Shown: positions 5,401 through 62,775 of the stretch, piece after piece
Numbering within the stretch: the first letter of the stretch is position 1
How the letters are laid out: each line of letters starts with the position of its first letter
NCBI GenBank assembly: GCA_965285935.1
Contig: OZ260661.1
Coordinates: forward strand, 45,632,001 to 45,696,000
Reading direction: 5' to 3'
Length of the DNA: 64,000 nt
Source of the DNA: Ophelia neglecta
Lineage: Eukaryota
The notes under the pieces: model-generated
Seen by the model: the letters and a program-made list of their open reading frames with translations, nothing else
Told to the model about the DNA's origin: nothing
Database searches by the model: none
Position numbers and translations under genes: made by a program

Positions 5401-8400
5401 GTTTGATGCACGTGTCTTGGAACGTGACGGTTGAAGAAATTGTGACGACCGGCCTGGAACGCACAACAAAAACGTGGTCCGACTCGTAAGCTCCCAAACT
5501 AATATCTATTCCGGGAGATAAACATTTTGATAAACATCTTATCATCCATCATAATTATGTACATGAATTCTTATGCAATTTGTCCACGTATGTTCAAATT
5601 TTTAAAAGTTATCCAACATATATCTAGTGTCATAATTTGAAAATGGAAACGTAGTGGACGCTTTTATCATTAATATAATTGTAAGAATTTTATTGCATTA
5701 GATAACGAAACATATATTTGTTTATTCTTCGTATTTTTAAGAAAGCGGTGGCCATTGTCGATTTCTTACGCCTCTTCCACAATTCTAGATAGACGACTAC
5801 CAAGCTGTTTAAGGCGCGACACTATTTCTCTCGGAATGACAACGCGATCTCTTTCAAGCGCGACCCCTTAGGGTTTGCATTGACCATAACCCGAGGCATG
5901 CCAGTTTTTATGTGTCAAATAATATGTCAATAAACATGAAACGAGCTTCGATTCAACTAATAACCGGAGTGGAGAAAATAAAAACTGGAAATCTTTCACA
6001 GTACGAAAATAAAAAGCAGATTTTAAAGAAATTAGGTTAACACATTTTTAATGTTGGCCGGTTTGCTGTACATTCGTTGATGTACTCGAATATTTCAAGT
6101 AACGAACAGCAACATATAAAACAATTTGGAACTAGTGGAAAATAGCTTGTTATTTTACTTTATATAGAAGCAGACGCTACCGTCATATCCGTTTCTATCA
6201 ATATCAAACGCTCCCGTCATCCCATATCCTAGACCACGTGGCTGCCCAGGCAGCTCATTGGCTGATATTCGCTGTGTGTAGTTGATGGATACGCCGTTAG
6301 GGGAGCCGTTAAACACATACACAGCGCCACGATTGTCGTTCTCATAGGGAGCTCCTACTATTAAGTCTGAGTGAGAATAATGGCAACAGTATTAAAAGTA
6401 CACAATGCCCGCTGTGAGATAAAATATTCTAAGGTCATCATAGCACATTTTTGTCCTAACATAAAACATACATGCGCCTTATTGGAAATATAATTTGGTA
6501 GTTATCGTTATAGGGAATAAACGATATTTATTTGTTCTTGACATGTAGGATGGACAGAAATAAATATATGAAATCCACATGAATTTTCTCCAAAGAATGT
6601 GCAGGTCTGTCTTTTTAATAATTAATCATATCAAACTACAATAGCGTGTCAGATAAATAATACTTGTTTACTGACCGGTGTAACCATCGCCATCCAGGTC
6701 TCCGGCGGAAGATATTGTTGTCCCAAATCTACTGAACTGCTGGTCGTTCTTCAATTTGGGTCCTTCAATCAAATCACCCTGTTTACAAAATTCACAAACA
6801 ATCCTCTCTGTTACTTAATCCGTTCAATATTAATGGTCTTCAACGACATTTAAGAATAAATATTGGTTAATTCTACACTCGAAAAAGGTGTTAACAAATA
6901 AATAATTGTAGCATGATTCTTTTAATTTTGAAAGTGGTCTGCACATTGAAAGGTGTGATTTAGAGAACAGTCTTATACATGTGGTTTACCTGAGTGCCGT
7001 AATACACGTACACCAGACCCTCGTCTCCTTGGCGAGTCGTGTAGAATGGTGCCCCAATAAAAAGGTCGTCCCAACCGTCTCCGTTTACATCAACAGCCAA
7101 CAGAGCAGATCCGAAACCAGACTTGTACTGGTGTTATTAAAAATACGAATTCAGATAATGTTAATTTCTACTCGATGAAAACTGACCAAATAACCGGATG
7201 TTTAATAGCACACTTTGTCTTATGCCATGCACTTAGGTTTTCGGTTAATAAATATACCAGGACAGGGAAAGAACATGTCAAATCTTGATTCATCTCAATT
7301 TATAAGATATTGGCTGAATGATATCGTGAATTCATGGCAGTTCATTAGGAGGCGGGTTCCAACGCGGGCCCCTCGTGCAAAGACAGTGAGGGTCTGGTCA
7401 CTGGAATTAGTGGGCTGCCGAAGATGGGCCAATGTACCTAGTCATATCGGGGTAGGCTGAACTGTAGCTTGGTTGCTATTCTCATATAACCGAGGCCTTC
7501 GGAAGGTACTGTCGAAAAGATGGACCTTGAGTCGAATAGAATCAAGGTTCATTCGAAAAAAAGGACGCACATGTGAAAAAGAAAGACGGAACGTATAGTC
7601 GAAAAGACGGAACGTACAGTCGAAAAGACGGAACGTACAGTCGAAAAGACGGAATGTATAGTCGAAACGACGGAAAAGACGGAACGAACAGTCGAAAAGA
7701 GGGATTGTATAGTCGCAAAGACGGAACGTATAGTCGAAAAGACGGAGCGTACAGTCGAAAAGACGGAGGGTAAACTTGAAAAGACGGAAGTTACAGTGGA
7801 AAAGACACACGGCACGTCGAAAACACGAAAGGTATAGTACAAATGTCGGAAGGCACAGTCGAAATGATTGAGACGGCTAATCCATGTTAATCTTGAGATT
7901 CAACATGATCTATAGGCTAAATGCATTGCGTGTGATACTTTAAGATACATGTATTGCATCCACCTGCGGTAACAATAGCAGTATAGTAGGCTCTAGTCCG
8001 GAGGGGGGGGGGGGGTGAAGGAGTATGAGAATGGGGGATTTGGGTGTTCCCTTCCCAGACCATCCTCTTGAGAGGTACACACCTCCCACGTCCTCGCCAT
8101 GTTCTCTGGAAGAGCAACTCCTAGACAGAGAGGGGCCAATGGAGACCAGAAACATTAATCAAGTCTGTTCATGCGGATAGGTTATCCAGTCCAGTTTCAC
8201 ACACACCTATATATCTGACCTAATTATATCTACCATTGAGACTGTAAAGAAGCAGCAATTATTCTTTACTTCTCCAATGCTTTAACTTACGCCCGATGTC
8301 TTACATAACATAATTCAGAGCTTAAAATTGGGCTTACCTGAGTCGAATTTAATCTTTTCAACAGGTAAGCATTTTGGACTTCCAGCCGATAAATAATTAC

Positions 8401-11297
8401 CTGAAATATTAAATATGTTAAGAATATGCCAGGATATGTATTATCAAGGCTCTTTTCTTTTATTATAAATGTAATTATTTATAAAAAAAAAACAACCTCC
8501 AATGTGTATCTATCATTACTGCATCTGTAAATAGCCAAGTGACCACGTGTGTGCTCATTAAATTATGATGCCAATCTTTTGCCTGTGCTGCGGGTTTATT
8601 ATTTGATAATTGACACTGGACAACAGGCAAAATGTGAAAAGATTATTTAGCTTTACTCAATGCAAATTTCTTAAATTAGATTAATGTACTTGTCCTTCCA
8701 GGTTGTAGTTCGGCGCTCCCGCCACCAAATTGTAGGAGTCTTTATCATCACTCAAGATATTACCGGTGGTGACTGCGTAGCCTTTGTGTTAAAAGCAGAC
8801 ATAAGGAAGAACTCTCAGACATAATTATCTTGACGTTCATTTGTGCCAGATGTTATAACAACTAATCAATATTAAGGGCACATACCAATGTATATAGAGC
8901 CCTTAACAATCACAGCTGCCAAACAAATTAATTGTGTTGCTTCAACAAAAGTGAAATCGAAGTTAGCTTCTGTCATGATACGAATCTGGCGTATTGCATA
9001 ATAAAATATTTACATAGATTTCATTACTTACCTAGGTTGCTGTTTTTTCGTACCGAGTACGGTATGTCACTGATAGAGTACCTCGTGTCATTAGTTAAAT
9101 AAAGCTCGACGCCACCTGGTAGTAAATATAATACAATACTGACATACTGACATACTGATATATGTGTAAGTTGAGAAGTAGATTTAGTGGTGTCGTACCA
9201 AATAGTTTCAGGAGTTCGAAGAAATGGCGGAGCTGTATTATTTTTGTATAAAAAAAGATTAACATATAAAATGGTACCAGAATTATCGTAGTGACGCTGT
9301 GGGAGACCCGGCCTACCGATGTACATATTATTATCCTGCAATTAAAATCGGGTGTACAAGAATCGTTGGGGTGAGTTTTAGATAGCCGATAGAATATCAG
9401 TGTAGTATGAAATATACAAATACATTTTAATAATCATTACTGGAAGAACAATGTTGTTGTTTACTATCATAGCGGGGCTGAATATACCTTTGCTACATGG
9501 GCTGACATTCCTGACAAAGTAGAACCAAACAGATATTTAAATTGTGTGGAATGGTTGTAGTAAACGCGGTGGCCATGACCCGTAAATCGGATTGTTTTAC
9601 TTTGCCCTTCTTCTGGGTGTCCCTCGTGTATATAGCAGATTCCATTCGGAGACCATTCATCTATACTACTATCGTTAAAGGCAACCTGATAATTATTCCT
9701 CCACAGATGGCCGCATGCCTGCAAGTTGTTCGAAGAAAATAAGTTCTCATTTACATATATGTAAATATATATTAGATCTAGGTTGAAAAAACAAAAAAGA
9801 CAGCTAGAAGTTACAATGTTATTTATAGTTACATGTATAAGTGGATATATATGGAAGACGAATTTTATATCTAAGAATTGTTCATTTATATAATTAGGTC
9901 CAGGATACAAAATACCAAACTAGTTTACAATGTTACAGGGGTTAATGTTTCCTCTTTTATTTCAAAAGATAAATATGGAGACTATCATTGATGATCATAG
10001 TCCATGTATATATAATACAGAGTCTGACAAGTAGGTGGTGTAGGTTGTACAACGTTAGGATATGCCGGTATCCGGCAAGACCCCCCCCCCCCCCCCAACC
10101 ACCAAATGATAATTCAGATATCCTTTATATATTTGTAAACCGCTTTTTCATATTGGCTTCGTGGAAATATTGATCAGTATGCTCGAGACTCGGAGTAATA
10201 ATGTGGCTGCTCTATACTTGGTAATTAATCGACATCTTTTCGGGGTTAGAAAAGACACTCGTTTATTTATTCTAAATGACAAACAAATAACAGATCCGTA
10301 TGTTGTGACCTGATAGTATTAAAGTAATTCTTGGCGAGTGCACGGTAGCCCGTATAAGGACAATCTCTACCGGTAGGCCTATGGTATAAGGGTATTAAGT
10401 TAGATATATAAATAAGTGAGTAAATAGCAATGGTTTTTTGCACATAGTCTTGTTTCAGAAGATATGCACTTGTGCAGAGCCCTTGTCAGTTTCGTCAGAA
10501 AAGTCTCATAGCTTATTATTAAAAAAGCCACCTCGTTTTTTCTCTCCAAAATGCCACCATATAGACATGTGTTATGTGCTATTTTATTTATTTATATTGA
10601 GATACAGATGTCCAAACACTGTGCACCTACCACCAGTCGGGAAGGAGAGCCGGCCCTGGAGTCAACTGATACTCCTAAAAATTGATGATCTTTGATATCT
10701 CCCCATAAATCCTTTCTGTGTGTATTTCCTAAAAAATGCAAACAGGAGAGCAATGTTAAAAAAAAGAAGACACCTTAAATGACCGAATAAAAAAACGACG
10801 TGAATTATACATAATAACCACTAATTAAGTGGATATAATCCCTTTACACTATTTGTTATTGCCTTAACCCCAGATCGGCTAGGAAAATAATAAATAACAT
10901 GCCTGTAGTTTCCAATCCTATTTGACTACAGGCTAGATCTGATAGGATGAGTGGACACATGTATATTGCTCCCGGAGACACTAAGCTGGGCACTTTACTC
11001 GAGTTGGCACGCGGAGCTCCAACCAGGAGCCTGTATATATTGAATAAGAGATTATACATTAACATCTATTCAATAATTTGCATTATGTTTTCCCAGCAAT
11101 TGTATTGTTATTTTGCCTTATACTACGTACCATGAATTTCCAGGAATTGAATGAATGGCAAGAGAAAATCCTAAGTAACTCCCAGCTGGTCCTTTATACC
11201 TAAGAGGTACGCCTTGAAGATCAATGTTATATGGGTGAACATTGCAAATCAGTCCCAAAGACATGGCAATCTCCCAAAACTGTAAATAACCCATCAT
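2448..11297 (-). CDS. Integrin alpha subunit, alpha4/alpha9-like, paralog D (partial: exons 1-14; calf/TM/tail exons absent from window)
   Basis: Exons: 11297-11131, 11030-10903 (GC donor), 10728-10631, 9718-9488, 9335-9278, 9115-9032, 8781-8690, 8400-8338, 7127-6990, 6778-6676, 6366-6181, 5505-5290, 4973-4831, 2588-2448. Open frame throughout. Exon 15 was not found in 1-2447, so the gene either continues off the left edge or is truncated. Confidence 0.85.
5141..5247. mobile_element. Small MITE-like inverted-repeat element (intron 12 of D)
   Basis: ctgtggtgcgg at 5141 and its reverse complement ccggcaccacag ending 5247. Confidence 0.45.
7560..7830. repeat. 21-bp minisatellite (AAGACGGAACGTACAGTCGAA), ~11 copies, intron 8 of D
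   Basis: Directly visible; explains the spurious repetitive ORFs 7442-7842. Imperfect inverted ends at ~7271 (gaacatgtcaaatcttgatt) and ~7910 (aatcttgagattcaacatgatc) suggest it lies in a non-autonomous DNA transposon. Confidence 0.9.
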
Positions 11298-12544
11298 TAG
11301 ATAGGTATTATTCCTGCCCTAAATGTTTAGATTTCTAGTTTGTATCACATTTAACAAGAGATCGGTTATTGTCGAGTATCCTTTGTATCATATCTTCAGT
11401 GTTAGTATAAAATTGTAATCTTCGGTATATAGCTCCTGTTCGAAAATGTCATATGATGGGTGTATCAATGTGTGTCTGCGAAACTGATAGAAGGATGTTT
11501 GAGTGTCAACTGCACTTGGTCCTTCCTGGAACCACTAAACTTGGTTTGGTTGTTCCAGGTCCTTCCCATAACGACCAACGCACACTCCGTTAATAGAAAT
11601 ATTATACACACACATATTTGTAAATTGAGCACATATACATGTATTGTATTTGCTCACCGCAATAGATTTGTCGAGCTAAGGCGAGTAATGGGAGAGTTTA
11701 GGTACAACTATGAGCTGGATCTTTAGACTGACTCATCACCATGTAATTTGGAACTAAAGGAACTTTGACAAGCAGGGAGCAATCATCAGATTCTACCCCG
11801 CTTGGGGGTATTAAGTCTCCTCGCATAGCAGGAACATGCTTTACCAGCTACCGTCAGCTGTAGGCCCACAGACCTCAGATAATTGTAAATAAAATTGTAA
11901 TGTATAGGATATTAAAATATAATATGCTAGTTTGCGATCAGGAGTTGTTTTTCCTGACGCTAGTCAAAGCACACTCAGAACGAACAGGTCAGTTGCCATG
12001 CCGTCAGGGAAACTACTAGATACTCGAAGCCCTTTTGAGGAATTGGACTGGGATTCCAAATCCAAATCATTCTAACATTAGGAATTCTACTGTATAGTAC
12101 TCAGATATATACGGCCTAATATCTATTGGACTGAATGAGGTTAATCTATTATCAGAATTGCTTATCTGTTAACAAACAATGCTAAGGAAATGTGCTTTAT
12201 TATTGACCAGAGTGTTGGTGGTGGTGGTGGGGGGGGGGGGGGGAGGCAAAACATTGTTCCCGGACGCGTCCTCAACCTCCCCCCCCCCTCATTTTTACTT
12301 GCACAATAAAAAAAAGTATAATAATACTCGTATACGTAAAACGTTACTTTAACATTTTCCTGAGTTTTATTCGAATGTTGCGTTGAAATAAATAAAGATT
12401 AAATAATTAAATAACGAGGAGTAGGCCCATTCAACCCCAAACTCTATATCTAATCATGAGTATAGTATGAAAAAGCATATTTATATCACGAGTCACTCCA
12501 ACACTGATTTTCTTTTGTTAATAAAAGGGCAACCCAAATCAGCC

Positions 12545-14512
12545 CGATAACTACTGTCAGTGTGGGTTGAGAGTAATAATATATATTGTAGAGGCCAGGC
12601 TGGTTTCAGGAAGCACCATGTTACTTCTGATAATGTATTAATATTGAGTTCACTTGTAAAAAAATACCTCTTTCAACGTAAAAAGTTGTATGCAGCCTTT
12701 TTTGACTTTCGAAAAGCTCTCGACCATGTTGTACGGGATAACGTGTATTACAAACTAATTAAAAGTGGTATAAAGGGACGCATATTAACCATAATTGAAT
12801 CTATTTATGCCCATGTAAAGTCACCTGTGAGGGGGTGGAATGACAAATTAAGTGATTGGTTTGGTTGTCCACTTGGCCTACGCCAGGGGGAGTGTCTATC
12901 TCCCATCCTGTCTGCTTTATTGATTAATGATATGGAAACTTATCTGGGCAGGAATGGGAATTCTGATTTTCCAATTTGGAGTGGAATTATCTATTACCTT
13001 CTCCTCTTCGCAGATGACTGTGTTCTATTGTCTGAGTCAGCAACAAAGTTGCAAGAGATGTTAAATGACCTTGGGACCTATTGTGATAGGTGGAACCTAG
13101 AGATAAATGTGGCAAAAACAAATATTGTAACGTTAGTTTTCAGGAACCATAAAAATACCAGTACGGGTGACTTTGTATATAAGGGTCGGAGTATTGAAGT
13201 AGTAGACGATTTTTGTTATCTGGGTACTACTTTGTCCTATAATGGTCATTGGGGAAGTAATATAAAAAAATTGCTGGCTAAAGCCAGGAAGGCTTTGTTT
13301 TGTCTATAGAGAAGAGTTTATGATAGGTATTTCACTGTACCAGAAATTATTGAATTATTTGAAAATCTAGTGGAACCTATATTGTTATTTGGCTGTGAGG
13401 TGTGGGGCTACAATACCAATTGCTGCCCTGGAAACTTTTCGCATTAATTGTTTTAAAGAACTGTTGTGTGTTAAAACTAACACAAGTACAAATATGGTCT
13501 TGTTGGCAGTAGCCCGTGTACCACTTAAATGTAAAATAGAGCCGAGGTCTGTTGGTTTTTGGGCAAGTTTGTCAATGGAACACAGTAAACGGTTGGCCAC
13601 AGATACTTTAAAATCATTGTATAAGGAACGCTTTCAAAACTGGGGTGGTTATGTAAGAGTTGAACTGCAGGGCATTGGCTTGGATGGTTGTTGGCCTGAC
13701 CCTGGTATAAGCAAAGGTGTGGCCAAAATTAAGCATTGTGTTTTTAAGGACTTATTCAGTTCACTTAAGAGTAGTAAAAGTACCCTGTTCAGATATTGCT
13801 GGAACATTGATATGGTTGGGCAGTCACCTTGGTATATTTCTAACCTGTCATACAAATTTGTGAAAATTATGTCAATGTTAAGGTTAAGGTCACATCGTCT
13901 CCGTACTGAGACTGGTACTTGGGAGGGCCTGCCTGTGGCTGATAGGTTATGCACCCAGTGCAACAGGGTGGAAGATGAAATGCATATTGTCCTAGAGTGC
14001 CCTGTATATTTGGATCTTAGAAAAAGATTTATAAATAAAAAATACTGGAAGAGACCAAGTTTGGATAATTTCATTGGCCTTTTGAATTGTAGAAATAAAA
14101 GTCAACTGGCTTGTCTGTGTAGATTTTTTGAACATGCACTGAAACTCCACAAGGACAGATTCCTGGTTTAGCACATATTTGCCTTAATTTGTCTCATGTT
14201 ATTTGTTTAAGGGTTTGGCTTATGTCTCTGCTGCCACCCTTGATATGTTATTCCTTGGGTTTGGCTCACATTTAGGGAATTAAAAAGTTTTGTTTATCTC
14301 TGTATATTTTATATTTTGTTATCGCCTATTGATGGACTCTCCTCTGCTTGTTTGTCTGCTGTTCTGGCCATGCCAGGTGTCCTACGGCACTGGCGCGCAT
14401 GTTGGGTGTATGTCACTTGTATAATATTACATTCATTTACATATAAGGTCATGTAACAGGGCAGTAATTGCCCTATAGTAATGAATAAAAATATTCGTAT
14501 TCGTATTCGTTA
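12545..14512 (+). mobile_element. 5'-truncated non-LTR retrotransposon (RTE-X-like LINE), RT plus C-terminal CCHC finger, disrupted
   Basis: RT motifs QAGFRK, FFDFRKALDHV, GLRQGECLSPIL, LLFADD, YLG. Premature TAG at 13307-13309 with the frame continuing (PILLFGCEVWG), then a frameshift near 13410-13425. C-terminal SHRLRTETG...CTQC...EDEMHIVLEC. 3' end has AATAAA followed by a (TATTCG)n tail at ~14492-14510. Clade assignment is inference. Confidence 0.88.
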
Positions 14513-14859
14513 ATAGTTTCAAATGCAGAAGTTCGATTGCAATATACCCCTTGGACATTTCAGCGACCGCCGAGGGACCGACGATTATTTTGCACCAACT
14601 CTCGCGAGATCTCGCTAGACTTACCTCAATACGCTGAACTGATGGCCTCGTGGATGGACCTACGATTCTGCTGTGTTGCCGGGTGCAGTACATCCACCAA
14701 ACAACCGCCAAATACAGGACTCCCAACTGTTTTCACCGACAGCCTCCCGGTTTTCACCAATTTTCGCCTGGTTATTAACTCATTCTCAGTAATTCTGGCG
14801 GGTTTATTTACGAGTTCAAGATCTATCACGGCATCCAAAGATACTGTCGGTTTCTACTA

Positions 14860-15100
14860 GAATTTCTCTCTGCCCTTATTTAATCAGTAATTGTAAATTG
14901 TAAAGCATTTAGTTTCTGCAGACGGTTTATTTGGGGCTGTTGGATAATCGCAGAACCCCAAACTGTAAAAGTGTAAGGGCTATAGGCCTATAACACATTT
15001 GTTTTCACTGCGTTTGCATGCTTTCTCCATTGCTGATTTAACCACATGCGTTATGACATTAGGCCTAATATTTTTTTTTATACTGCAACTACCAGTGTGT
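14860..15100 (-). mobile_element. Possible CR1/L2-group LINE 3' ORF remnant downstream of paralog C
   Basis: Minus-strand remnant PYTFTVWGSAIIQQPQINRLQKLN resembles the CR1/L2 C-terminal YCxxVW...LQKLQN segment; short and degenerate. Confidence 0.4.
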
Positions 15101-15804
15101 CGCCTCCTAGCTCGAACGTATTGCATCCTCTTTCACGGGTTTGAAAACGCCAGTTTTTTTTATACATTACTAGAGTTGCCATCGGTGTCAGTAAAGCATA
15201 TATATTTGTTGAAGGTGTATAGCGGGGGGGGGCGGATGTGAGGGAGATGGAGGGAGTGGGAGAAGAGGGAGAGGGCGAGGGGGCAGGCCCGCGGAAACGT
15301 GCCAGGGAAGAGTGGTAAGGGGTAAGAGATGGTTCGTCTGTAATTACGTTATTTTCACCATGTTATCATTTTATACTCGTTATTTTTTGTTAATCTGTAT
15401 TGTCATTAAGGAGAGACCGCTCGAATAGCGTGGCACTATTCGGTCAATCCCAGTAAATATGTTTAAACCAAATGTATATTGATCATACGGCAAACAAGAA
15501 GGAATAACAACAACCACTTGAGTCTTAACTATAGTGTTACAAAAACAACAGTGTATACATTTAGTCCAAAGATGATACAGTATATACTAGATAACAGTGG
15601 TTCGTAAATAAGTGTTGAACACTAATGTAAGGAGAATGGAACAGAAAATGCAAAAGAGCATAATAAAAAACATACAGCTTATCCCAAGCCAATAACCCCT
15701 TCCCGCCCCACTGCCATCTCAACCGTAGCTTGCCTTGACAGTACCGTTACAACCATATCAGACAAGTCCTTTGTGAGGTTTTCACAGCTCTACCACTAAG
15801 CATA

Positions 15805-18800
15805 TCACGTCTTTTTCATGACGGCACTGACATACTGTTCCATTGCAGCTTTTTCCTGCAGTAAAGTCTGGGGATTGCTATTCTGCAGTTCCTTAACAGC
15901 TTCCATTTCGTCTTCGGGCACCATGAACGACTTGGCTCGGGCTTTACTCTGCCTCTTCGCCACAACGCCCTCGTGGCGATTTCGACGGAAGAAACCAACC
16001 TGGATAATAAAACGGAGGTTTTCGGGAAAACTTTTAATCCAAAACGCACCATAAACTATACGCGCAAGTATATTTAATTGTGTTTTCCTCTTCCATAGCC
16101 AACTTTTAAGTTATTCAAAAGCAAAATTTTTAGAGATTCCCCGGTTATTTCCCCGATTGTCTTACGGATTTCCGAAATATAATTTTTCGACACTAGGAGA
16201 GCATAAATTGTTTCAGAGCTATTACATGTAATACAAATTCACGCGATATTTCATATGAATTGCGATATATTGACTAAAACGGACCTTCACGAGGACAATG
16301 ATAAGAATGATGAGAAGTAGAAGGCCTGCGAAAATGCTGACTAAAATCACCCACAAGGGCAGGCTCTGCTCTGCAGAGGGCGGGAGAATTGTTGTCTTGA
16401 TCTGAAGAGAAAAAGTCATAGAAACGCTCGGCAGTTATTTATCTGCTTGCACCTGCATTATATGAAAGGAACTAAAATCTTAGCAAAACGTTTTTTATGT
16501 CACAATACGTGCGTTTTATTGTCAAATTAACTAAGCTATCCCTGTTAACGTTTGAAGAGCAGGTGTAGAACACTTTGTGATACGGATAAATACAAACACT
16601 ATTAAGTTAATGGCCAGCCCTTTCATGATTTAACTTATCTTTGGTGAGTAATGTACCTGAATATTCTGACACAGTCCACAGTCCTCTCTTCCTATAAACC
16701 TCGGTAACTTGACATCTGACACGAAGGAAAAGCCAGCGGAGCTCTAAATACATACACACACAAAATCAGAATTGTCTTGCTTTAGAATTAGATTTATATA
16801 CATAATACCAAGTAAACCTTCTTTTGATAACAAGCACGTGTTCTTATGTGATCTAGGCCACAATGATTCTTATGATAATGTTCACGAATATTTGGCTCAG
16901 TCATTTGTTTCTCGTAAACTTTTTGCATAAGAGTTTCGGACTAGATTCGTTGACAGATTCAATATATACCTATATTGTTATCAAAAAACTCATAGGCCTA
17001 TATTGTCATAAAAAAAAATATAGGACTATATTGTCATAAAAACGCAATGTAAATTCGTTTACTGCTGAGCAGTGTTAAAAGCAAGCTGAGCTTATAAAAA
17101 GACTATGTCATTCAGAATGAGAATAGGTCGTTTACGGTTCCATCAGCAGACACTTGTAAATCCACGTTATACGTTATTGTAACTGTTTCATCGACTGCCA
17201 GATTCCGAACCTCGCACTCCATGTAATCGCCGACAACCTGCAGAAGAAAGTACACTTTCATTCAACAATATAATCCTATTTATTAGTGGAATGCCCGTTT
17301 GTTTGCTTTAAACATTAAGCAATAACTTACCAGTTTGACATTTCTTGGTTGGGGGAAAACTTTCTGACTTTGCATAGCTCCGGTTTGATTAACATTAACA
17401 TTTCCATTTTTGCGACAACTGACAAGGTTAATACCACGGGACCCTTGTGAGACCTGACAAGAAAAAATATAATGACGACCAATTTTTCACGTTTCTAATG
17501 CATTTAATTTGCAAAGATTCGTTTAATAATTTTAAGCGTATTTTCTTATTGTGACAACTTTCAAGGCTAACAAGGCCAAATAAACCAATGTACCTGAAAA
17601 TCAGAAACGGTAAAAGCGATGTCGCTACGGTCAACAGTAGGATGGATCCGTACAGTAAAGTAAGGCGCCAAGCCAGGCCCTTCATTTCGGATGTCCAACA
17701 CGTGCTTTGCTCTTTGTGACGAAGTCCCACTCTCTGTCATTTGTATGGCAACGAGCTCCTCGGGGTTAGACAGACTATAATAAAAATAAATCTAACATAT
17801 GCCTTCATTGAAAGGTGAGCTAACAAACAGACAAAGAAGAATATGAATTCACAGTTTTCGTTTGGTAAAACGACATTATCGCCCAGGAGATACGTTGCCT
17901 AACAGTGTTACCCTTTTGCTAGTAGTCGAGCCTCGTGTACAGCAGGTATTATCACGGTGACGTTGTTGTTCTTCAGTTCCTCCTCGGTTTCCGTTGAACG
18001 TGTGCTGACAACTGCTGTAAACCTCAGGTCGTTTGGCGCCAGTTTTTCAGAACAACATAGGGTGAATAAAATTGTCTGAGAGGAATTGGGAAGCATTGGA
18101 TTTCCTGTTTCACACGAAAACACTTCAGAGTCAGTCTCCTCTTCATTCATTTTCTTGACACATGATAGAGATCTGTATGGCGACACTGTGATTCCTGGAG
18201 TAAATATGAAATCCAAACGGGAATTGTATGCACCATCTTCTCCATTTAATATGTCGATTTGAAACAGTACCAGCTTCTGCTGGCCAATCACGTACGTCGT
18301 TGCGTTGGCTTTCATATCTACCGCCAGATCTGTTCTGCATATCAAATCGCGGCAGTCCTTACAGAAGTGAATCTAGGGAAAAGAAAATGACCAAATCAAA
18401 GGTTTGAGTAAATAAATAGGCGAATGAATGTCAAAATATCTCGTGCAGATGTGATGTATAGATATTGACCTCGGTAAACATTACACCAGATTGTGTCTGA
18501 TTGATGATTGGAGCCAAGCCGTTTGGGTTGTCTCTTCTTAGCTCCTCGGTGTTATTGTCGAGTGAGTAGCGTGTTGTCAAACGGATCGGCCTGATCTTGT
18601 CAGCCGGACTCTTCTGCCAATTGAAAAGAAACAATAAGGTGCATGTGTACCCAATTTAAATGAAACCGACTATGATTAAAAAACATACATCACATCATGA
18701 TGTACACATATGACATACACCTTAATCCATTGACTTGGATAAATACGTTTACTGGCAGACTTAAGATTAAATCGATTATCATTAATTAAATATTTAGTGT

Positions 18801-24800: not shown

Positions 24801-25956
24801 TAAAAAATAGATAGTTTTGAGTGCCGTAACAAATCAGGACGCGACACTCAGTTAATCAAGATGCTAGCTGATTGATATTTTCGGATCCAAAAACTTATTT
24901 CTGAGCATATGATATGAACCTACCATCATTCGGGAAGGGGAGCCGGCCCTGGCGGCGACTGAAACTCCTAAAAACTGATGATCTTTGATATCAGCATACT
25001 CATTTCTTATTAATGTGTTACCTGAAGATTGCAAACAGAAGAGCACTGAAGGGAAACTGGGAGAGGGTGAGAGATCGAATCCCCATATGCCCCAAGGCAA
25101 AAGATAGTCAATATCTATTATGCATTCAAACTATTCTCATAACAAAGATAGCTACGAAAGAGTTATAAAATAATATCATGCCTGTAGTGTCCAAGACAAT
25201 CTGACTACAGGCTGGATCTGAAAGGGTGTTGAGTGGACACATGTATATTGCTCCGGGAGACACTAAGCGTGGTTCTGCAGTCGAGTTGGCACGTGGAGCA
25301 CCCACCACCAGCCTATTTATATATGTATAAAAGGTTTTGAAAAAAGAATCATTTAAAAAATAATATCACACCTTGTTCAACATAAATAATTTTCCCTTAG
25401 GTGGTTAGGTTTATTGGTGTCTCAAATTCCAAGCATTCTACAATATATTTTTATTAAAGCTATACAGAAACGCATATTTATCAATAGAACATACTATATA
25501 AACTTATTTTCACACATGTGAACATGCAACAAAAAACCATACAACTGATGCAAATGTTCAAGGCACTGTCAAGCCGAGAAACCTTTGTTATTGTTTTCCC
25601 TTAAATGTTGAACGCAGTATTCATGAAAACAAAAATAACATAGTCAGCCCTAATTAAAAATACGACATTTTTTGATATCTCTTAATAAGAGGTTGAAAAG
25701 ACTGATACAACAGAAATATGAACGTTTTGAAATACTTGTTTTCACGCTTCGTCTCGGTCATCAACAAATTATTGTGTTTGTAAACTTACCACGAAGCTCC
25801 AGGAATCGTGTGAACGGCGAGAGAAAACCCCAAATAACTACCTGCTGGTCCCTTAAAACTCAGAGGAACGCCATAAAGATCAATATTGTATGCGTTAACA
25901 ACACAAAACAGTCCTAAAAGTATGGATACCCTCCACTGCAGGTGTATATAATTCAT
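15805..25956 (-). CDS. Integrin alpha subunit, alpha4/alpha9-like, paralog C (21 exons, ~1043 aa)
   Basis: Exons: 25956-25790, 25312-25182 (GC donor), 25021-24924, 24539-24309, 23985-23928, 23645-23559, 23367-23276, 23082-23020, 21452-21315, 21162-21060, 20893-20708, 20456-20241, 20111-19960, 18613-18470, 18372-17912, 17774-17594, 17453-17331, 17237-17136 (shifted donor, inferred), 16743-16657, 16401-16285, 15999-15805. TM LPLWVILVSIFAGLLLLIILIIVLVK; KVGFFRR tail ending YVSAVMKKT*. Confidence 0.9.
19270..19525. repeat. CAAGTCA-rich repeat array, likely MITE-derived (intron 13 of C)
   Basis: Repeated caagtcacac/caagtcaaac/caagtcaaag/ccctcaa units. Confidence 0.55.

Positions 25957-27544: not shown

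Positions 27545-27547
<3 letters not shown>

Positions 27548-27609
<62 letters not shown>
27548..27609. repeat. (GA)n microsatellite followed by a G-rich tract
   Basis: About 30 GA units; G-runs 27611-27682. Confidence 0.95.
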
Positions 27610-27612
<3 letters not shown>

Positions 27613-29625: not shown

Positions 29626-29645
29626 TGCAGTTTTATAAAAACAGG

Positions 29646-41600: not shown

Positions 41601-42397
41601 CTTTTTGAGAAGGCAAAGCACTATTATGGTATTAGACGATTTGCCCTTCCATGCCTTAAAAGCTACATTCATAACCGATCTCAATACGTTTACTTTGATG
41701 GGTCTCAATCGAGGTCCATGGCCTCGAGTTGTGGAACAAGGGTTCTTTCTAGGTCCCATGTCTTAATATTAATGACACGGCAAATGTACATGTAACTGAT
41801 ATTCTTGTCAAGATATTGTTTGCTGATTATTCCAACGCATACATCAGAAGCAGAAAATCGTGATCAATATACAATACCATTTCTTAATGAAGAGATGGGA
41901 AAAATAACACTCTGGTTAGAAGTTAATAAATTAACCTTAAATGTTAACACAAGAAGCCATAAAATGGTTTTCGTTGGAACTAGAAGTAGATGTTATATAA
42001 ATAAACAAAGTAAGCAATGGGTTAATTTCTAGGAATATTAACATTATTGGCTTTAAAAAGGAACAGATGATTGCGGGCTTCCCGGCTAAATATTCAACTT
42101 ATACCCGGTGTTTTGTCTTATTATCTTTATAAAAATTTGAACGATAATGATGCCCCCCCCCCACACACACACACAGAATACCCATCCCACCTGACGATAT
42201 ATTATGAAAAAGCCATGAGACATATATACTCACCACGAATTTCCAGGAACTGTGTGAAAAGTGAGGGAAAACCCGAAATAACTTCCGGCTGGCCCTTTGA
42301 AATTCAGAGGAACACTTTTGAGATCAATATTGTATAATTTAACAAAGCAAAACAGCCCTAAAAGAATAGTGATCCTCGATAACTGTATACAGGCCAT
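29646..42397 (-). CDS. Integrin alpha subunit, alpha4/alpha9-like, paralog B (21 exons, ~1058 aa)
   Basis: Exons: 42397-42234, 40689-40559 (GC donor), 39951-39854, 39619-39383, 39045-38988, 38457-38371, 38208-38117, 37087-37025, 36844-36707, 36472-36370, 36201-36016, 35838-35623, 35371-35220, 34987-34844, 34728-34268, 34109-33917, 32216-32091, 31219-31091, 30595-30509, 30276-30160, 29840-29646. Same phases and motifs as A; KVGFFRR tail; no stop or frameshift found. Confidence 0.92.
32286..32448. mobile_element. Tc1/mariner-pogo-type MITE (intron 16 of B)
   Basis: TIRs CAGTGAAACCTG...CAGGTTTCACTG flanked by TA on both sides; internal AGACCAC repeats; second copy at 61053-61230. Confidence 0.85.
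41210..42010 (+). mobile_element. Degenerate CR1/L2-group LINE RT fragment in intron 1 of paralog B
   Basis: Frame-broken remnants KVPPIFKNGD, GHSTNMALIILVEKI, FDTVRH, QGFFLGP, WLEVNKLTLNV. Confidence 0.7.
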
Positions 42398-47505: not shown

Positions 47506-48760
47506 TCAACTTTCCTTTTTCTTCATGACGGCGCTCACGTACTCTTCCATGACTGCTTTTTCCTCCTGTGGAGTTTGGGGGTTAGTCTGTTCGAGTTCCT
47601 TTTCATGATCATGCTCCACCTCGTCCCCATGTTTAATACAGGATTCTTCCTGGATCTTGCTCTCCCTGACCGCCGCAATGCCCTCGTGGCGATTGCGGCG
47701 GAAGAAGCCCATCTGCATATGATACAGGTAGAGTGAAGGTTGGAAAGTCGTTGGTATCTACTATCTTTTTAATATACATTTTGTTATTTTTAACATATAA
47801 TGTGCCCATTTAAAGAATGATTCATACGTGTCTGTCTCGGAAACATGGAGCGTATGCAGCTCATGATATAAATGTAAGTTTACTGTGTAAAAGGAATTAT
47901 TGACATAAACTGACCTTCATGAGGACAATGATAAGAATGATAAATAGTATAATTCCTGCGACACCGCTGACTATTATCACCCACCAGGGCACGCTCTGGT
48001 CTGCAGAGGGGGGAAGAATTGATGTCTTGATCTGAATTGATAGTTGTAGAAACACACGGCAATTATTGGCAAGTAGTCCACCATGATTTCATATAATAGG
48101 GGCAACAATTTAGGACACGTGTTACCTCAGTAGTTGACCTTCTAAAGATAGACTGATACATGAAGACCATTATTGGGAATAAGTTGTGAAATGAATTCTC
48201 AATGCTAAATGGTGTTTAAATCAGGGGCCATGAGGCCAAATTGGCAATTTAAGCATCTTTTAATTAGTTGTTTGAATTATATTTAAAAGTCGAATTGAGT
48301 TCGGAATTGACATGTCAATTTTGAACTTAATTTTGCATGAGGCAACTAGATGATGCCATAATCACATTACTTAGAGAATTTAATGGGCCCCCAGGCTTTT
48401 GTTTTTAATAAATAATACCAAATAGAGTGCAGAAGAGATTAAATGAGCCGTAAATCCGCTAATTTATGCTACTTTTTGCTATTCCCTGATTATTTTCAGC
48501 TTTTTTTAGAAAATAATATTATTGAACTATTGCCTCTTATCACTCATGGACATATTCCGACAGTTGAAAATTACTTTTTAAAACTAACTAACTTAAAGAC
48601 ATAGTTGCGCTAGAATGCTCTACTTGGGTTATGACTCCTGTAAAGTGACCTTAAGACTCATTTCCGAATAAAGGTGTTCATATATTCTTTGTTTGTTTTA
48701 GAAGGTCAACTAAGTATCAACTGTTTAAATTGGTGCACCTATTTTATGAATTTTGGAATC

Positions 48761-48791
<31 letters not shown>

Positions 48792-51700
48792 ACTCATATG
48801 ATCCCATGTATTAACGAATGGCGTCCGAAAATGTCTGAAAATATTTCTAATCAAACACATTTGTATATAAACAAATAACAGTTTAATTAATATGTTTGTC
48901 TGTTTAAGGTAGTACCTGAATATTCTGACACAGTCCACAGTCGCCTCTTCCTATATACCTGGGTAACTTGATATCGGACACGAACGTAAAACCAGTTTCG
49001 CTCTATATATAGACAACGAGATGTACTATCCATTAGCACTTTATACTTAAGAAAACACATGTTTCAAAAGAATTCCATGTCCGGTAAATGGACATGGAAC
49101 TTTGTGCCGTACGCTGCAAGTTAAATATCTACCTATGTGAAAGCAGAATATTAAATTGAGGGCTCAGAGACAAAGTATGCTTTGTAGCAAAATGATTAGT
49201 TTTGAGATGCTATTGAGTGATATTCTTCTTACGACTCTAACGTAGTACATGTACCTGTAATTTATCAGTTGGGGCATACAGAAAAGGTTGCATCATTATT
49301 ATTACTTAAATCTAATATGTATTATTTCTGTAGTGAGTACACCAAGTGAATAAATAGAATACTAGCATTTTTATACATATGTTAGGTTATATTCGACGGT
49401 ATCGGATGTCATGCGCGTCTCGGTGCTTTGTATGGGCATTTGACCCGTATCCAGGCAAACAATTTACGTTTGAGGCTTAAACAAAAAGTCTATACAAGTT
49501 TTAACTTGTATTAAAACTAAGCGCTTTTTAGTAAACTATATTTTAAAACTAATTTCTTGGTGCAAAGATGCTTCTGGTAAATAACTATATCTTTAGCATG
49601 CGCTCCTTGTCTCGTTTAGACAATCACATGTTTTACGAGTTATAATTATTACAACCCTGTCATATTAGAAAATAAGAAAGAAAATCTCATTTGAGTTAGA
49701 TGTCAAATAGCATACTTTGAATCCAAGCCCATGAAATACGGTTTCATCCGAAGGTATTTCCACATCCACGTTATAAGTTATGGTGACTGTTTCCTTGACT
49801 GCAAGATTATGAATCTCGCACTCCGCGTAATCGTTAGAATTCGCCTGAAAAAAAAACAGGAATTTAAACCAAACTTCAGATGGTGTAGTAAAAGAATTCA
49901 GTTGGATTCTAGAGCAATCATCAGTTCCAAATCGATGTCGCAACGTTAATTGTCGCAAAAATTGCCAGAAGACAAACACTAACTACTAAACAAAGCCATA
50001 TTTTATACAATACAGAAATCGTATTTCATATCAAATGAACCTGGTATTGTAAATATGGGTAGTGTACTAAGACTGCAATATGACAATCAGATTCACCAAT
50101 TTCGGTGTTTACGGTGGGGAGGGCCCTGCCAAATATATATATATATTGATATGTGAGCAAAGAGTAGTAGCTAAACATGCTCTAAAAAAATCTTGGCCCC
50201 ATGACACTTCCCTGATATGACGTCAAAAGACTCAAAAGTGTTATGGAATGTGTACCATTTTCGAGCATGAGCATTTAGGACAGGCAAAATCGGGATTTGT
50301 CAAGTATTTCCAGAAAAATATATGGAAGAATTTGGCAGGAACTAACGTTAAATAATTATAATACAATTTTATAATTGCGATAAAAAGAAAAACATATATT
50401 TGATTTCATTGATTATATCGCAAAAATATGCAACAAAATAAGTATATTCCAGAATCTATCCGTGAATGGCATGGCCGAAATAAGATCTGCCGGATTGAAT
50501 CACCATTTTGTATAGGTAATACACGTGTCTGATTGGCCTTAACTCTCCCGCTGACCAAAGACAATAATTTTATCATAATAATGTAAATAGTTATTGCATT
50601 AAAATGGAACTCAACTCCTCACCAGGTTGTGATTTCGTGGTTGTTTGTTCAAATTCTGACTTTGCACAGGTTCGGTTTGATGTTTCCCATTGCCGTTTTC
50701 TACAAATCGACAACTGCCGAGTTTAACCCCACGGAACCCTTTTGAGACCTACAAAGAAAGTTACTAGTCATCACACTGACTGCTTTTCACGGTACTAATA
50801 AATTAAAACACAATTGAAATAGCAAAATCAAGGTATTATTTCAATGAATATATTTCCTATAATGATTAAATACAAAGCAAGCTATGTAATTGGTAAAAAT
50901 CAACTAAGCAGAAGAAAAGCACCTGTAAGCCAGAAATATTGAAGACGATGTCGCTATAGAGGTCAACAATTGGCAGACGAATGAGTACGGTAAAATTTGG
51001 AGCCAAACCAGGCCCTTCATTTCGGACGTCAATCACGTGCTTTGCTCTTTGTAAACCCTTCCCCGAAACCCCTTCCGCGGTTGTCGCTATGGCAACTAGC
51101 ATATCGGGGTTAGAAAATCTAGGATGCAAAACAATCATCTTCAAAAATAATATCCTCCTAATCAAACATGTTATATAAATGGGTGCTGAAAACAGTCGAC
51201 AAATACGAACGATCCGGTCCTAAGTTTAGATTGAATAAAGCGATATTCTAGCCGGATATGTGTTACAATATAATTACCCTTTTGCTAGTAGGCTAGCCTC
51301 GTTTATGGCCGGGATTATCACTGTGACGTTGTTGTTTTTCAGTTCCTCCTCTGTTTCCGTTGATCGAGTGCTGACAACTGCTGTAAACCTCAGGTCGTTT
51401 GGCGCCAGTTTTTCAGAACAACACACGACGAATGATATTGTCTGGGAGGAGTTGGGAAGCATTGGATTTCCTGTATCACAGGAAAATACTTCAAAATCAG
51501 TCTCCTTGTCATTACTCCCCTTGACACAAGATTGAGATCGGTATTGGGAAACTGTGATCCCTTGAGTAAATAGAAAATCCAGCCGAGAATTATAAGCACC
51601 ATCTTCTCCATTCAATATTTCGATGTGAAATAGTACCGGGTGCTGTTGTCCAATCACGTACGTCGTAGCATTGGCCATCATCTCCACCGCCAAATCTGTT

Positions 51701-54700
51701 CTGCAGATTAAATCACGGCATTTCTTGCAGAAATGCATCTAGCGAAATGAAAAAGGCCACATCAAAGGTTAGAGACAATAAATGGCATTATGAAATGTTT
51801 TTTAAATTTACTTATTATATATAGTATAATAATATGATGTTTATATTAACCTCAGTAACCATTGAACCAGATTGTGTCTGATTGATGATCGGAGCCAAGC
51901 CGTACGGATTGTCTCTTCTTAGCTCCTCGCTGTCATTGTCAAGTGAGTAGCGTGTTGTTAAACGGATCGGCCTGATCTTATCTACAGTGTTCTTCTGCCA
52001 ATGAAAAACTAAAAAGGTTTCGGGTGCATACATTTACCTTGTTTATTCCTTTTAGTTTATTGATTCTCAGGAAAGACTACGACAAAGGCAGAATCAAGTT
52101 TACTGTAGTTTCTGAAAGCTACATTAATAAACAGAACACAGACAAAGGGATGAATTATCATAAAATGTCGTCTGCCTTTGAAAGGTCCTAAATCATATTA
52201 TCAAAGTGAACTAGTGTTGTACACGCGCTGTACAAAGCACTAAATATATTCGCTATGCTGTTCAACCGAATGTTCTCAAGTACGTAACTTACTGGCACTT
52301 GGATTATAATGTTCTGTTTTGTTTCCTCCTGTAGTTCCAGGACCTCCCGACCTCGCCCTTCTCCCGTCGCGTTCCCGTGATTGATCAAACGAGCTCTGTG
52401 TGTAAGATCTTCGTAATCGTCCATAATGGTATCCCAGTTTATTGCTGAGAGAGGGGAAATATTATTTTTAGCTTCTACAGTTTATTCCTGAATCTTCCAA
52501 TTGTACTGAAGGTTAATAGAATAAGTTATTAAATTAGTGGTTCACCGTGTGTTCGCGCCAGGGCCTCGGGTTTGGAAGAATTCCATGCCAACTTGAAGCT
52601 AACCCTAAAACAAGGAACGCTGTTTCCTGAAGACAATACACACACGTGTTGCTCCGGCTTGACGCACGTGTCTTGGAGGGTAATGGTTGTCATTATTGTG
52701 ATGACTGGTCTTGAACGGACAACAAACACGTGGTTCGAGTCGTAAGCTCCGACACCAAGATCTACTCAAAGAGACACGCTATTTAACATGGGTTTTGACA
52801 TTTTTTTATTAAACCTGGATTTCAACATTTTTGCGAAGTTGGACGAAAAAACAATTCGATAACATGGAATTGGTCTAATTTTATTTTTACAAATTTGATA
52901 TTCCGAAATATAATAACACAAGTTGGTAACATTTTATACAAGTATCTGAAGTGAATCTAGATGTGATTGTGAAGCTAAAAGTGCACCTGAATGTGGATTC
53001 CAATCTTATTTCACTTTGATTAGTTTTAAGTGGTCTAAAAATAATAACCAACACTCCCCTAGCATACAAAAATAATACGAGTTGAGAGTATTTAGTGGAA
53101 TCATGTAATTTCGATTGAAGTTCAGATATATTTTGTATATAAATCAAATTCTTCTGATATATATCAACACATTCAAATGAATTACTTCCGACTTTTAAAG
53201 TTTTCGAGTGAAGTAGAATAAACGTGGAATGTAACAAGCAGACTTTATATTACCGTCATATCCGTTTCCATCTATGTCAAATGCTCCCGCCATCCCATAT
53301 CCTAGACCACGTGGCTGTCCTGGCAGCTCATTGGCCGATATTCGCTGAGTATAGTTGATGGATACACCGTTAGGGGAGCCGTTAAACACATACACAGCGC
53401 CACGATTGTCGTTCTCATAGGGAGCTCCTACTACTATGTCTGAGTGCGGATATTGAAAAAGTGGTTTAAAGGTTGACGATTCCTGCTGTAAGATTACATT
53501 TAATATGAACTTTAGTACAGCATTCTTGACGTCTGAAATATTTATAAACATCTTGAAGAGTTTCCTGAAATGGTAACTTCTTTTTATGAAAATGCAGTGC
53601 AATAAACATGAAGGGATGTCAGAATTGGTATTCCCGTGATTTAATTATTTAATTGACAAAATCAGGACCAAAATTATGATAGCATACTATAGCATATTAA
53701 TCAAATAATAAGTGTAATGACCGTTGTAACCATCGCCATCCAGATCGCCTGCCGAAGATAGTGTTGTTCCAAATCTACTGAACTGCTGGTCGCTCTTCAG
53801 CTTGGGTCCTTCGATCAAATCACCCTGTTTAAAGAAAACTTACAGTCTTGTTTACTTGACGGCTAAAGGGGACAAGTCAAATATGATTCCTCTTATGTTT
53901 TAAACAATTTTATTAATCTCGAAAGAAAGCAAAATGTGTAAACAATTTATATAAACTTAGATAAGAACGACACAACGTTTAATTACGAGTTGATCCCTAA
54001 CGTGATTTGATGTTTTTGCATGCATGGTAGAGAGAACTGTTCAACAGGACTTTACCTGAATACCATAATACACGTGTACGAGACCCTCGTCTCCCACGCG
54101 AGTCTGTTGGAATGGGGCTCCTACAAATAGGTCATCCCAGCCGTCTCCGTTGACATCAACAGCTAACAGAGCAGACCCGAAACCAGACTTAAACTGAATT
54201 AAACAAACATAATTAAGATTTTTTCTTTAACTTTAAGATCACTGGCCTTAAAAGGACAAACACTTCTTGGATATTAGTAATAGTAACTATGCATAATTTG
54301 TTTTCTACTTTTGAACGTACATTTCTGGGTAGTGTATGGCTCCCCCTTCAATCATTGGTAGCCTATGTCTAATGGACCCAGAGTCAACTATTTAACAAAG
54401 CTGTGTGTCATTTGGCAACATACGCTACATTCTGTCTCGAATGCCTGACAAGCATTATCCTTCGCGATCTCCATACACTTAATTTTGAAAGAATTTTCCT
54501 AAGTTATTTTTTGTTTTCCTGTCCTTAGATAAATTATTTGTGATGTTAAATTATAATTTTTCTAAATGAACGTTCTCGTGCAACTGTGTGCTAACCATCT
54601 CAGATACAAATTTTGGAAGAGACTATTATACTATTTGGCTTGGTTTTGCCGGCCGACTAAAAATAATGTACAAGCTTTTAAAAATATACAATACACAATA

Positions 54701-61927: not shown

Positions 61928-62094
61928 CAAGAGTGCAAACTTATCTCATTCGCGTAGAATATTTCACGAGCATTTGCGTTTAAACTTCAAAATATATAGT
62001 GTGTCTTTCACAAAATGATAGACCGAGTATAAGCGAATGATAGCAGAATTTAAGGTCTTTGATGTATGGGGTACAATGCCTGCCAATATTCTAT

Positions 62095-62679: not shown

Positions 62680-62775
62680 GAGCTATGCACTTACATGTAT
62701 AAGCTCCGCGGGCCGCGAAGCTATGCACTTACATGTATAAGCACAATCTCGCGGAGCTGTGCACTTACATGTATT
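62680..62775. repeat. Three copies of GAGCTATGCACTTACATGTATAAG
   Basis: Seen at ~62680, ~62718 and ~62754. Confidence 0.8.

Follow-up and report, generated by a model that had tools for sequence, protein, structure and literature searches.

A tandem array of integrin-alpha genes

The window, the whole 64,000-nt stretch analysed, is OZ260661.1:45,632,001-45,696,000 of Ophelia neglecta (GCA_965285935.1), forward strand; negative positions lie outside it, before position 1. It carries genes A-D of an array in which six intact integrin-alpha genes, each of 21 exons, follow one another in tandem; genes E and F lie upstream. All six 21-exon models have open frames and canonical splice sites.

47506..61714, minus strand: gene A, 21 exons, 1047 aa; 20 of 20 introns GT-AG, internal stops absent
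29646..42397, minus strand: gene B, 1050 aa in 21 exons; GC-AG intron 2
15805..25956, minus strand: gene C, 1043 aa in 21 exons; GC-AG intron 2; the type from which the D 3' half derives
1..11297, minus strand: gene D, exons 1-14, continuing to -3589 outside the window; 1037 aa
-5764 to -19831: gene E, after D
-26180 to -41841: gene F, after E

Judged from their predicted products, A-F are integrin-alpha genes, with an FG-GAP beta-propeller that carries calcium-binding loops, thigh and calf domains, and a single membrane span followed by GFFxR. Pfam scans placed the thigh (PF08441, exon 12) and calf-1 (PF20805, exon 15) families above cut-off, as well as FG-GAP (PF01839) in exon 9 of C, with exon 11 just under; exon 11 also matches alpha4 and alphaV chains. 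A hydrophobic exon 20 and GFFRR occur in all six models, PF00357 was matched below cut-off only, and the Atlas confirmed only the calf-1 family. With exon 11 as query, the phage collection gave no match and a word-indexed protein search gave one weak match among 18 candidates, while HMMER with exon 15 gave nine matches, the best at 39%; a close orthologue was therefore not found in these searches. C1 and C9 carry further integrin-alpha-like loci, whose match to exon 15 is 28-29%. Within the array, the tree of A, B, C and E is close to a star, with silent divergence of ~0.4 per site, and F is the outgroup to A-E. A first-pass annotation of the window had described the introns as barely alignable, which is true of A, B, C and E but not of D versus E or D versus C.

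Gene D as a likely hybrid of E and C

Neither E nor F had entered that annotation, nor had the main event at the locus, a D gene with an E-like head, a C-like tail and a single switch. Over exons 1-15 the D and E proteins agree at 751 of 770 residues (98%), and over exons 16-21 D and C agree at 259 of 267 (97%); the remaining halves (D versus C head, D versus E tail) show 74-75% amino acid identity. Trees unite D with E for exons 1-15 (97% support) and D with C for exons 16-21 (96%), and the E-like and C-like identity of D extends to introns and intergenic DNA. The one E-to-C switch falls in register where exon 15 ends, around -1500 to -1549, outside the window. Informative sites carry the E state as far as -1500; from -1506 onward they carry the C state, except for a single stray E-type site at -1719.

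11298..17950, minus strand: half of the tandemly duplicated unit (C tail and C-to-D intergenic DNA), repeated at -1506 to -5763 (D tail and D-to-E intergenic DNA)
1..2424, minus strand: the portion inside the window of a 3421-bp insertion that D intron 14 carries and E lacks; a young high-copy repeat with a Helitron-like 3' end
12512..14844, plus strand: remnant of a non-LTR retroelement (RVT_1), present in the C-to-D but not the D-to-E intergenic copy

Because a single in-register switch between flanking paralogues coincides with tandemly duplicated introns and intergenic DNA, we read D as a likely unequal-crossover hybrid of the FCGR2C type, joining an E head to a C tail, and likely a product of crossing-over, not of conversion.

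Divergence of D and E near the predicted ligand site

Intron divergence between D and E reaches 8.6% in introns 2-7 versus 1.6% in introns 8-14, with a peak near exon 6.

8401..10902, minus strand: D/E divergence peak, D intron 2 to intron 7, ~2.5 kb wide, introns included
9032-9115, minus strand: D exon 6; 6 replacement and 3 silent differences from E and a one-codon indel

In alignment, exon 6 falls on the loop by which RGD integrins bind ligand. PMC5225454 assigns contact with the ligand Arg to Asp218 of alphaV and Asp227 of alpha5. In an indirect alignment through relative P0003, with low identity in this region and numbering transferred by count, four genes (A, B, C and E) have Glu at the corresponding column, D has Lys and F has Val, the RGD-binding Asp being absent from A-F at that position. 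D and E differ most around exons 5-7, which are predicted to form the loops that bind ligand. Positive selection was not seen in exons 3-6 and 8 among pairs of A, B, C and E, where replacement differences per site are fewer than silent ones. The loops may be spared by selection or merely by lack of homology.

The peak may instead be old allelic polymorphism, in which case D would be recent and drawn from two diverged alleles, exons 3-7 would represent ancient, possibly balanced lineages, and later D/E conversion would be unneeded. Unequal crossing-over should take the two copies of each half from different chromatids, and the 1.6% divergence of introns 8-14 resembles that between alleles of C. 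Some age for D is nevertheless suggested by the C/D copies of introns and intergenic DNA, which differ by 2-10% with many indels and carry transposon insertions private to each copy, although such divergence is not decisive in a polymorphic species. We consider an allelic origin a serious possibility, if not the expected one; it is compatible with the crossover and conversion history proposed below and alters only its last step.

Exon-sized collapse of silent divergence

The first-pass annotation had interpreted near-identity of single exons between changing paralogue pairs as a gene-conversion patchwork. All six of its counts are present in the sequence, and conversion is likely for exons 11 and 2 and less certain for 9 and 14, but is not supported for exon 15 A/C or exon 5 C/D, which are background. 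Our conversion tests compared paralogue with paralogue within one genome.

25182..25312, minus strand: exon 2 of C; 4/131 nt differences from B, identity ending at the splice sites
40559..40689, minus strand: exon 2 of B, partner of C in the B/C tract
53254..53439, minus strand: exon 11 of A; by alignment the counterpart of alphaV residues 358-419, in the late propeller blades; ~15 nt of acceptor-side intron shared with C
36016..36201, minus strand: exon 11 of B
20708..20893, minus strand: exon 11 of C
6181..6366, minus strand: exon 11 of D

Exon 2 of B and C differs at 4 of 131 nt, as first counted, and at 3 of 41 synonymous codons versus a 29% background (P=7e-4, just missing the Bonferroni line of 4e-4 for 126 tests). 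In exon 11, A and C show the reported 5 differences in 186 nt, with 2 of 59 synonymous codons differing versus a background of 0.30 (P=3e-7), and among A, B, C and E only 5 of 21 fourfold sites vary versus 88 of 143 elsewhere (P=0.0017). A GENECONV-like permutation on silent sites was significant after Bonferroni correction for both exon 11 A/C and exon 2 B/C (0.016 and 0.024-0.036). A genome search for further exon 11 donor copies returned only the five cluster copies.

The same patterns could arise without conversion between any of A, B, C and E, through star-like duplications, purifying selection on FG-GAP exons and silent-rate variation, leaving the D hybrid as the sole exchange. Several cluster-wide tests agree with that view. 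Recombination signal by PHI is strong on all sites (P=0.0008) and lost on silent sites (P=0.31), informative-site heterogeneity behaves similarly (P=0.0002 and P=0.095), and GC3 is not raised in the converted exons (0.487 for exons 2, 9, 11 and 14 versus 0.474 and 0.469). The AU test keeps one quartet, since none of the 12 exon blocks rejects the best overall arrangement, AB|CE (the lowest P being 0.08), and per-exon trees including F are mostly weakly supported. Because the tree is also near-star, pair-switching topology alone is a weak argument for conversion. Simulated exons as low as exon 11 arose in 43% of runs at a rate CV of 0.5 (5% at CV 0.3), so that the exon 11 case leans on gene F as a control.

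Constraint and rate variation fit less well with the details of the two exons. The exon 2 drop is confined to B/C, the other five pairs standing at 0.32, and star-tree simulations with exon-specific rates gave P ~0.005 for it at three levels of rate variation. Exon 11 is low among A-E yet not versus F (0.65 at fourfold sites of exon 11 versus 0.72, F being near saturation); exon 10, although equally conserved, stays variable (18/27 synonymous columns versus 14/54 in exon 11, P=6e-4); and A and C share 18-19 of 25 acceptor-side intron bases at exon 11. A history free of conversion therefore seems improbable to us. The synonymous drop in exon 2 B/C and exon 11 A-E is local, specific to a pair or group, and beyond what constraint explains, and these exons were likely homogenised by interparalog gene conversion. 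In line with the first-pass annotation, the variable exons 3-6 and 8 retain more silent variation (50/68 versus 229/502 synonymous columns, P=1.5e-5).

36707..36844, minus strand: exon 9 of B; 6/138 nt differences from D and from E
6990..7127, minus strand: exon 9 of D; no differences from E
A 51866..51937 and B 34859-34930, minus strand: exon 14 A/B 72-nt identical run
A 51423-51368 and C 18057-18002, minus strand: exon 15 A/C 56-nt identical run

Evidence at the other reported tracts is graded. Exon 9 of B and D has the 6 differences in 138 nt originally counted, 5 of 44 synonymous codons differ (P=9e-4), and permutation was significant on all polymorphic sites, with no segment on silent sites; an older conversion between B and D,E is probable. 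The exon 14 A/B run, given earlier as ~70 nt, measures 72 nt, with 5 of 45 synonymous codons differing (P=0.01) and permutation significant on all polymorphic sites, the silent-site signal being lost after correction, and conversion here is suggestive only. For exon 15 A/C, a 56-nt run is present and not listed for B, but silent divergence is at background (39/128, P=0.83). Likewise, the exon 5 peptide GLPQRHYD is common to C and D, and also to E, with silent divergence again at background (5/16, P=0.67). We rejected both as conversions, and the conversion-free history fully accounts for them.

Read contigs and assembly integrity

Short-read contigs came from three runs of a single sample, which may be that of the assembly itself. 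Relative to the median over single-copy C, contig depth, which is not copy number, was 2-3x over the shared C/D 3' half, ~2x over exon 2 and 3.5-4.9x over exon 11. The D-specific junction base was found in two of three runs, in contigs that may be mosaics across a 42-nt C/E identity tract. Among the C-tail variants listed, 20 of 24 are D alleles, and each duplicated half has at least one allele matching neither assembled copy in all three runs. Contigs from run X1 have a hole at 16691-17087.

These contigs argue against misassembly and, being built from raw reads, against the polishing cross-talk that the first-pass annotation had named as a refuter. That D is a false duplication joining an E allele to a C allele, with cross-talk producing the near-identical exons, draws on D/E and D/C divergence (1-14%) that overlaps the allelic divergence of C contigs (545-681 nt with 8-17 differences), on the junction adjoining the 42-nt tract and on the possible identity of the runs with the assembly's sample, but it is very unlikely given 264 kb of N-free sequence, an in-register junction within an exon, the raised depth over the shared half with alleles fitting neither copy, the raised depth at exons 2 and 11 that true matches to several genomic copies would produce, and a 565-nt contig over C exons 9-10 with 0 differences.

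Discussion

Integrin alphas are usually regarded as slowly evolving matrix receptors, and to our knowledge the origin of lineage-specific invertebrate integrin-alpha groups has been little studied. We are fairly confident that this locus is an array of six integrin-alpha genes in which D likely arose by unequal crossing-over, and in which exon-sized gene conversion likely removed silent differences between paralogues from exons 11 and 2 and, with less certainty, from exons 9 and 14. In the history that we propose, A, B, C and E split and their introns then diverged, so that only conserved exons would have kept enough homology for ectopic recombination. Short conversions would have homogenised those exons, exon 11 repeatedly and among all five of A-E. 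E would then have mispaired with C in the longest exon (exon 15, 461 nt), and a crossover at the 42-nt C/E identity would have duplicated ~15-19 kb, giving a predicted D receptor with the E propeller and thigh on the C lower leg, membrane span and cytoplasmic tail. Later conversion may have made D and E alike again between intron 8 and exon 15; alternatively, the two may have derived from two diverged alleles.

More speculatively, and with considerable doubt, the locus might behave like an immune-receptor cluster, in which conversion keeps the beta-pairing and calcium scaffold uniform, selection protects ligand loops (as in the D/E charge reversal, Glu/Lys, at the RGD-Asp position) and unequal crossing-over recombines heads and signalling tails as segregating copy-number variants. 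The mechanisms are textbook knowledge, which limits the surprise; the gene family is new for them, and paper listings and abstract openings, with subscription papers outside scope, gave no conversion or hybrid genes among integrin alphas. The array would place integrins alongside Fc receptors, opsins and protocadherins in the way their genes recombine. Furthermore, D/E (98% identical heads, differing near exon 6) and D/C (97% identical tails) form a natural domain-swap series for ligand specificity and signalling.

Lineage-specific alphas have been described in other invertebrates, including six oyster-specific alphas and insect alphaPS3 (PMC7390872, in part). Like those, the genes here lack an I domain and are distant from named subfamilies, being 24-29% identical to the full-length relatives found; unlike here, 'tandem', 'duplication' and 'gene conversion' have 0 occurrences in that paper. 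Teleost clustered protocadherins, from extracts of PMC1852091, are likewise tandem adhesion receptors with homogenised structural and divergent specificity regions. In the teleost clusters, however, identity exceeds 99% along extended 3' portions of single large exons and GC3 is raised, as in fugu, whereas here the tracts are exon-sized, partly decayed and without a GC3 rise, in separate 21-exon genes with changing partners. Red/green opsins under conversion (PMC3924837, as excerpted) similarly show a paralogue divergence peak beside near-identical introns, as in D/E introns 2-7 versus 8-14, although the peak here is ~2.5 kb wide, includes introns and may be allelic in origin. FCGR2C differs as an Ig-family receptor with an 82-kb unit, compared with an integrin-alpha gene read from the sequence of one genome, a unit of 15-19 kb and a junction in a leg-domain exon. 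As in D, it is a receptor hybrid in a tandem cluster, with its first exons from one flanking paralogue, its last from the other and the intervening DNA duplicated.

A tandem cluster of six integrin-alpha genes

Self-comparison of the window revealed four collinear copies of one multi-exon gene, whose minus-strand translations carry integrin-alpha motifs; the host genome is 762 Mb and its genes are spliced. Searching the genome with exon 11 located a fifth copy upstream, and the analysis was extended into flanking DNA, by 110 kb on the upstream side and 90 kb on the downstream side. Exon boundaries derived from alignments between gene copies gave six genes of 21 exons apiece, with open frames of 1011-1053 aa (negative coordinates lie upstream of window base 1):

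61714-47506, minus strand, gene A, copy alignment model
42397-29646, minus strand, gene B, copy alignment model
25956-15805, minus strand, gene C, copy alignment model
11297 to -3589, minus strand, gene D, copy alignment model
-5764 to -19831, minus strand, gene E, copy alignment model
-26180 to -41841, minus strand, gene F, copy alignment model

Introns are GT-AG throughout except intron 2, which the models predict to be GC-AG in B (40558), C (25181), D (10902) and E; A and F have GT-AG there too. For exon 18 of A and B, where a second candidate donor lies 24 nt downstream, the donor was chosen by homology. In a family scan, exons of C matched FG-GAP, thigh and calf-1 families, with an integrin-related family in 5 of the 8 scanned exons (above cut-off in 3). 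Protein identity is 70-76% among A, B, C and E, 43-45% between F and the others, and just 24-29% for the full-length relatives found outside the cluster. Three in-frame peculiarities were observed: A exon 4 (59584-59402) lacks ~16 residues of one loop, E exon 17 (-17025 to -17081) has 57 nt versus 123-138 in the other genes, and the E tail (exon 21) is shorter than and different from the other copies.

Further FG-GAP loci lie at C1:87.88 Mb, C9:44.45-44.48 Mb, C1:107.38-107.44 Mb and C2:81.03 Mb (C1 being the contig of the window), two of them apparently pairs; those at C1:87.88 Mb and on C9 match exon 15 at 28-29%. Immediately past gene F lies a tandem pair of MFS transporter ORFs, each in a single frame (L006:8282-9484, L007:3863-5113); the flank also holds an ankyrin-repeat ORF (L004) and an RT/RNase H retroelement (L002-L003). 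A dispersed 180-bp repeat occurs at window 61050-61238 and 32284-32456, with further copies in the flanks, and minisatellites of 42-bp and 21-bp units at 62088-62935 and 7500-7867.

Gene D joins an E-type head to a C-type tail

The clearest exchange in the cluster, missing from the first-pass annotation, is gene D, which equals E at 751/770 aa over exons 1-15 and C at 259/267 aa over exons 16-21. Its introns split the same way, E-type then C-type, and the C-to-D spacer is duplicated as the D-to-E spacer. Diagnostic sites are E-type up to -1500 and C-type from -1506, a switch point adjoining a 42-nt C/E identity with which exon 15, longer than any other exon, ends. By sequence comparison, D matches the product expected of unequal crossing-over between E and C, and would be predicted to combine propeller, thigh and calf-1 from E with calf-2, membrane span and tail from C. 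D/E divergence is 8.6% in introns 2-7 versus 1.6% in introns 8-14 and maximal at exons 5-7, a peak that may equally be frozen allelic divergence or of the conversion type.

The region is covered by short-read contigs from three runs on a single sample, possibly the one that was assembled; they serve as an assembly check, not a replicate. Summed depth over gene C 15500-16690 was 47-72, 25-34 and 58-75 in the three runs, where 13 single-copy C bins had medians of 23.5, 11.4 and 24.2; such depth does not measure copy number, and a contig may be a mosaic. Depth within gene C was ~2x at the exon 2 bin and 3.5-4.9x higher at the exon 11 bin. Among the 40 of 273 variants listed, 24 fall on the C tail (20 D alleles, 1 E allele, 3 neither), the D-specific junction base appearing in 2/3 runs. 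Of 23 variants checked across the E head and adjoining spacer, 18 are D alleles and 5 match neither copy (35 of the 40 rows shown were covered; 5 in a retroelement were excluded). False duplication of D predicts single depth and two alleles; raised depth and extra alleles were seen, and it is therefore unlikely. D-type contigs have ~3-4x the depth of C-type over the shared tail (window 15500-17950). Depth, which is not a copy number, hints at extra D-like copies in this sample.

D intron 14 also holds a 3421-bp insertion missing in E (window -997 to 2424; L011:9004-10000 plus window 1-2424), which terminates in a short hairpin then CTAG, carries a 417-bp tandem duplication at 877-1714, and which we take to be Helitron-like. 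Its 3' 157 nt show at least 99% identity at 40/40 scored places (880 candidates), so the family is young and high-copy. Retroelement remnants, one in each copy of the duplicated unit, lie at window 12512-14844 (with RVT_1) and L011:1634-2804; contigs of 2/3 runs join across the latter.

Probable conversion in few exons

The near-identities that the first-pass annotation ascribed to conversion were reproduced on recount: 4/131 differences in exon 2 (B/C), 6/138 in exon 9 (B/D), 5/186 in exon 11 (A/C), identical runs of 72 nt in exon 14 (A/B) and 56 nt in exon 15 (A/C), and an exon 5 peptide common to C and D in translation. Background silent divergence is 0.37-0.44 per site among A, B, C and E, and ~0.8 versus F. 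Differing synonymous codons number 2/59 in A/C exon 11 and 3/41 in B/C exon 2 (background ~0.3), 5/44 in B/D exon 9 and 5/45 in A/B exon 14; the counts for A/C exon 15 (39/128) and C/D exon 5 (5/16) equal background, and neither stands as conversion. D was excluded from most tests because it is mosaic. In GENECONV-like permutation, B/C exon 2 and A/C exons 11-12 survived six-pair correction on silent polymorphic sites; B/E exon 9, A/B exon 14, A/B exon 21 and C/E exon 21 were significant on all sites only. The B/C exon 2 drop had P ~0.005 in star-tree simulations with exon-specific rates.

Exon 11 has low silent divergence in every pair among A-E, with 5/21 fourfold sites variable versus 88/143 elsewhere. 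F is as diverged from the others there as elsewhere (0.65 vs 0.72), and exon 10 approaches exon 11 in protein conservation, yet its silent divergence is not low. Against conversion, an exon as low as exon 11 arose in 43% of simulations at exon-rate CV 0.5. PHI was significant on all sites and not on silent sites, AU tests rejected the quartet AB/CE (A with B, C with E) in 0/12 exon blocks, exons 16-19 and 21 rejected both alternatives to it, and GC3 showed no rise in converted exons. Thus, the case for interparalog conversion rests on collapsed branch length in few exons, not on proven topology switching. Near-identity tracts stop at splice sites or within ~15 nt of them, as would be expected if exons alone retain homology.

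The 3' parts of A (exons 16-21, 51118-47506) and B (exons 16-21, 34109-29646) group strongly (AU P ~0.001 versus alternatives), in contrast to the weak grouping of exons 1-15; A/B exon 21 has 6/43 silent differences. Judged from these trees, an older crossover or long conversion is possibly responsible.

The proposed sparing of variable loops is borne out as a pattern. A, B, C and E share 53-66% protein identity in exons 3-6 and 8 and 89-92% in exons 9-11, and 50/68 silent columns vary in the former versus 229/502 in other exons. Lower homology accounts for this as well as selection does, and replacement rates exceeding silent rates were not found. An arthropod alphaV-like protein served as the bridge to alpha5 and alphaV: in this indirect alignment of low identity, the last part of exon 6 lies opposite the loop bearing the Arg-binding Asp (Asp227 in alpha5, Asp218 in alphaV; PMC5225454). 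At the Asp position the same alignment puts Glu for A, B, C and E, and Lys for D.

Comparison with known systems

Lineage-specific alpha-integrin groups have been described from oyster and from insects, in a source that mentions neither tandem duplication nor conversion (PMC7390872). Titles and abstract openings from searches of the open literature showed neither conversion nor hybrid genes described for integrin alphas. D would resemble human FCGR2C, an unequal-crossover hybrid gene (PMC6786274), as a hybrid of flanking genes. The D/E peak at exons 5-7 resembles the one seen between the red and green opsin paralogues, which diverge most at a peak while conversion acts on them (PMC3924837), an allelic origin being equally possible. 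Like the teleost protocadherin clusters (PMC1852091), the integrin cluster has spared specificity regions, but it lacks their long, GC3-raised, >99% identical tracts. The parallel with MHC clusters that the first-pass annotation suggested would be a tentative one. Overall, the patchwork is real, its probable mechanisms are known ones, and the gene family is a new instance of them.
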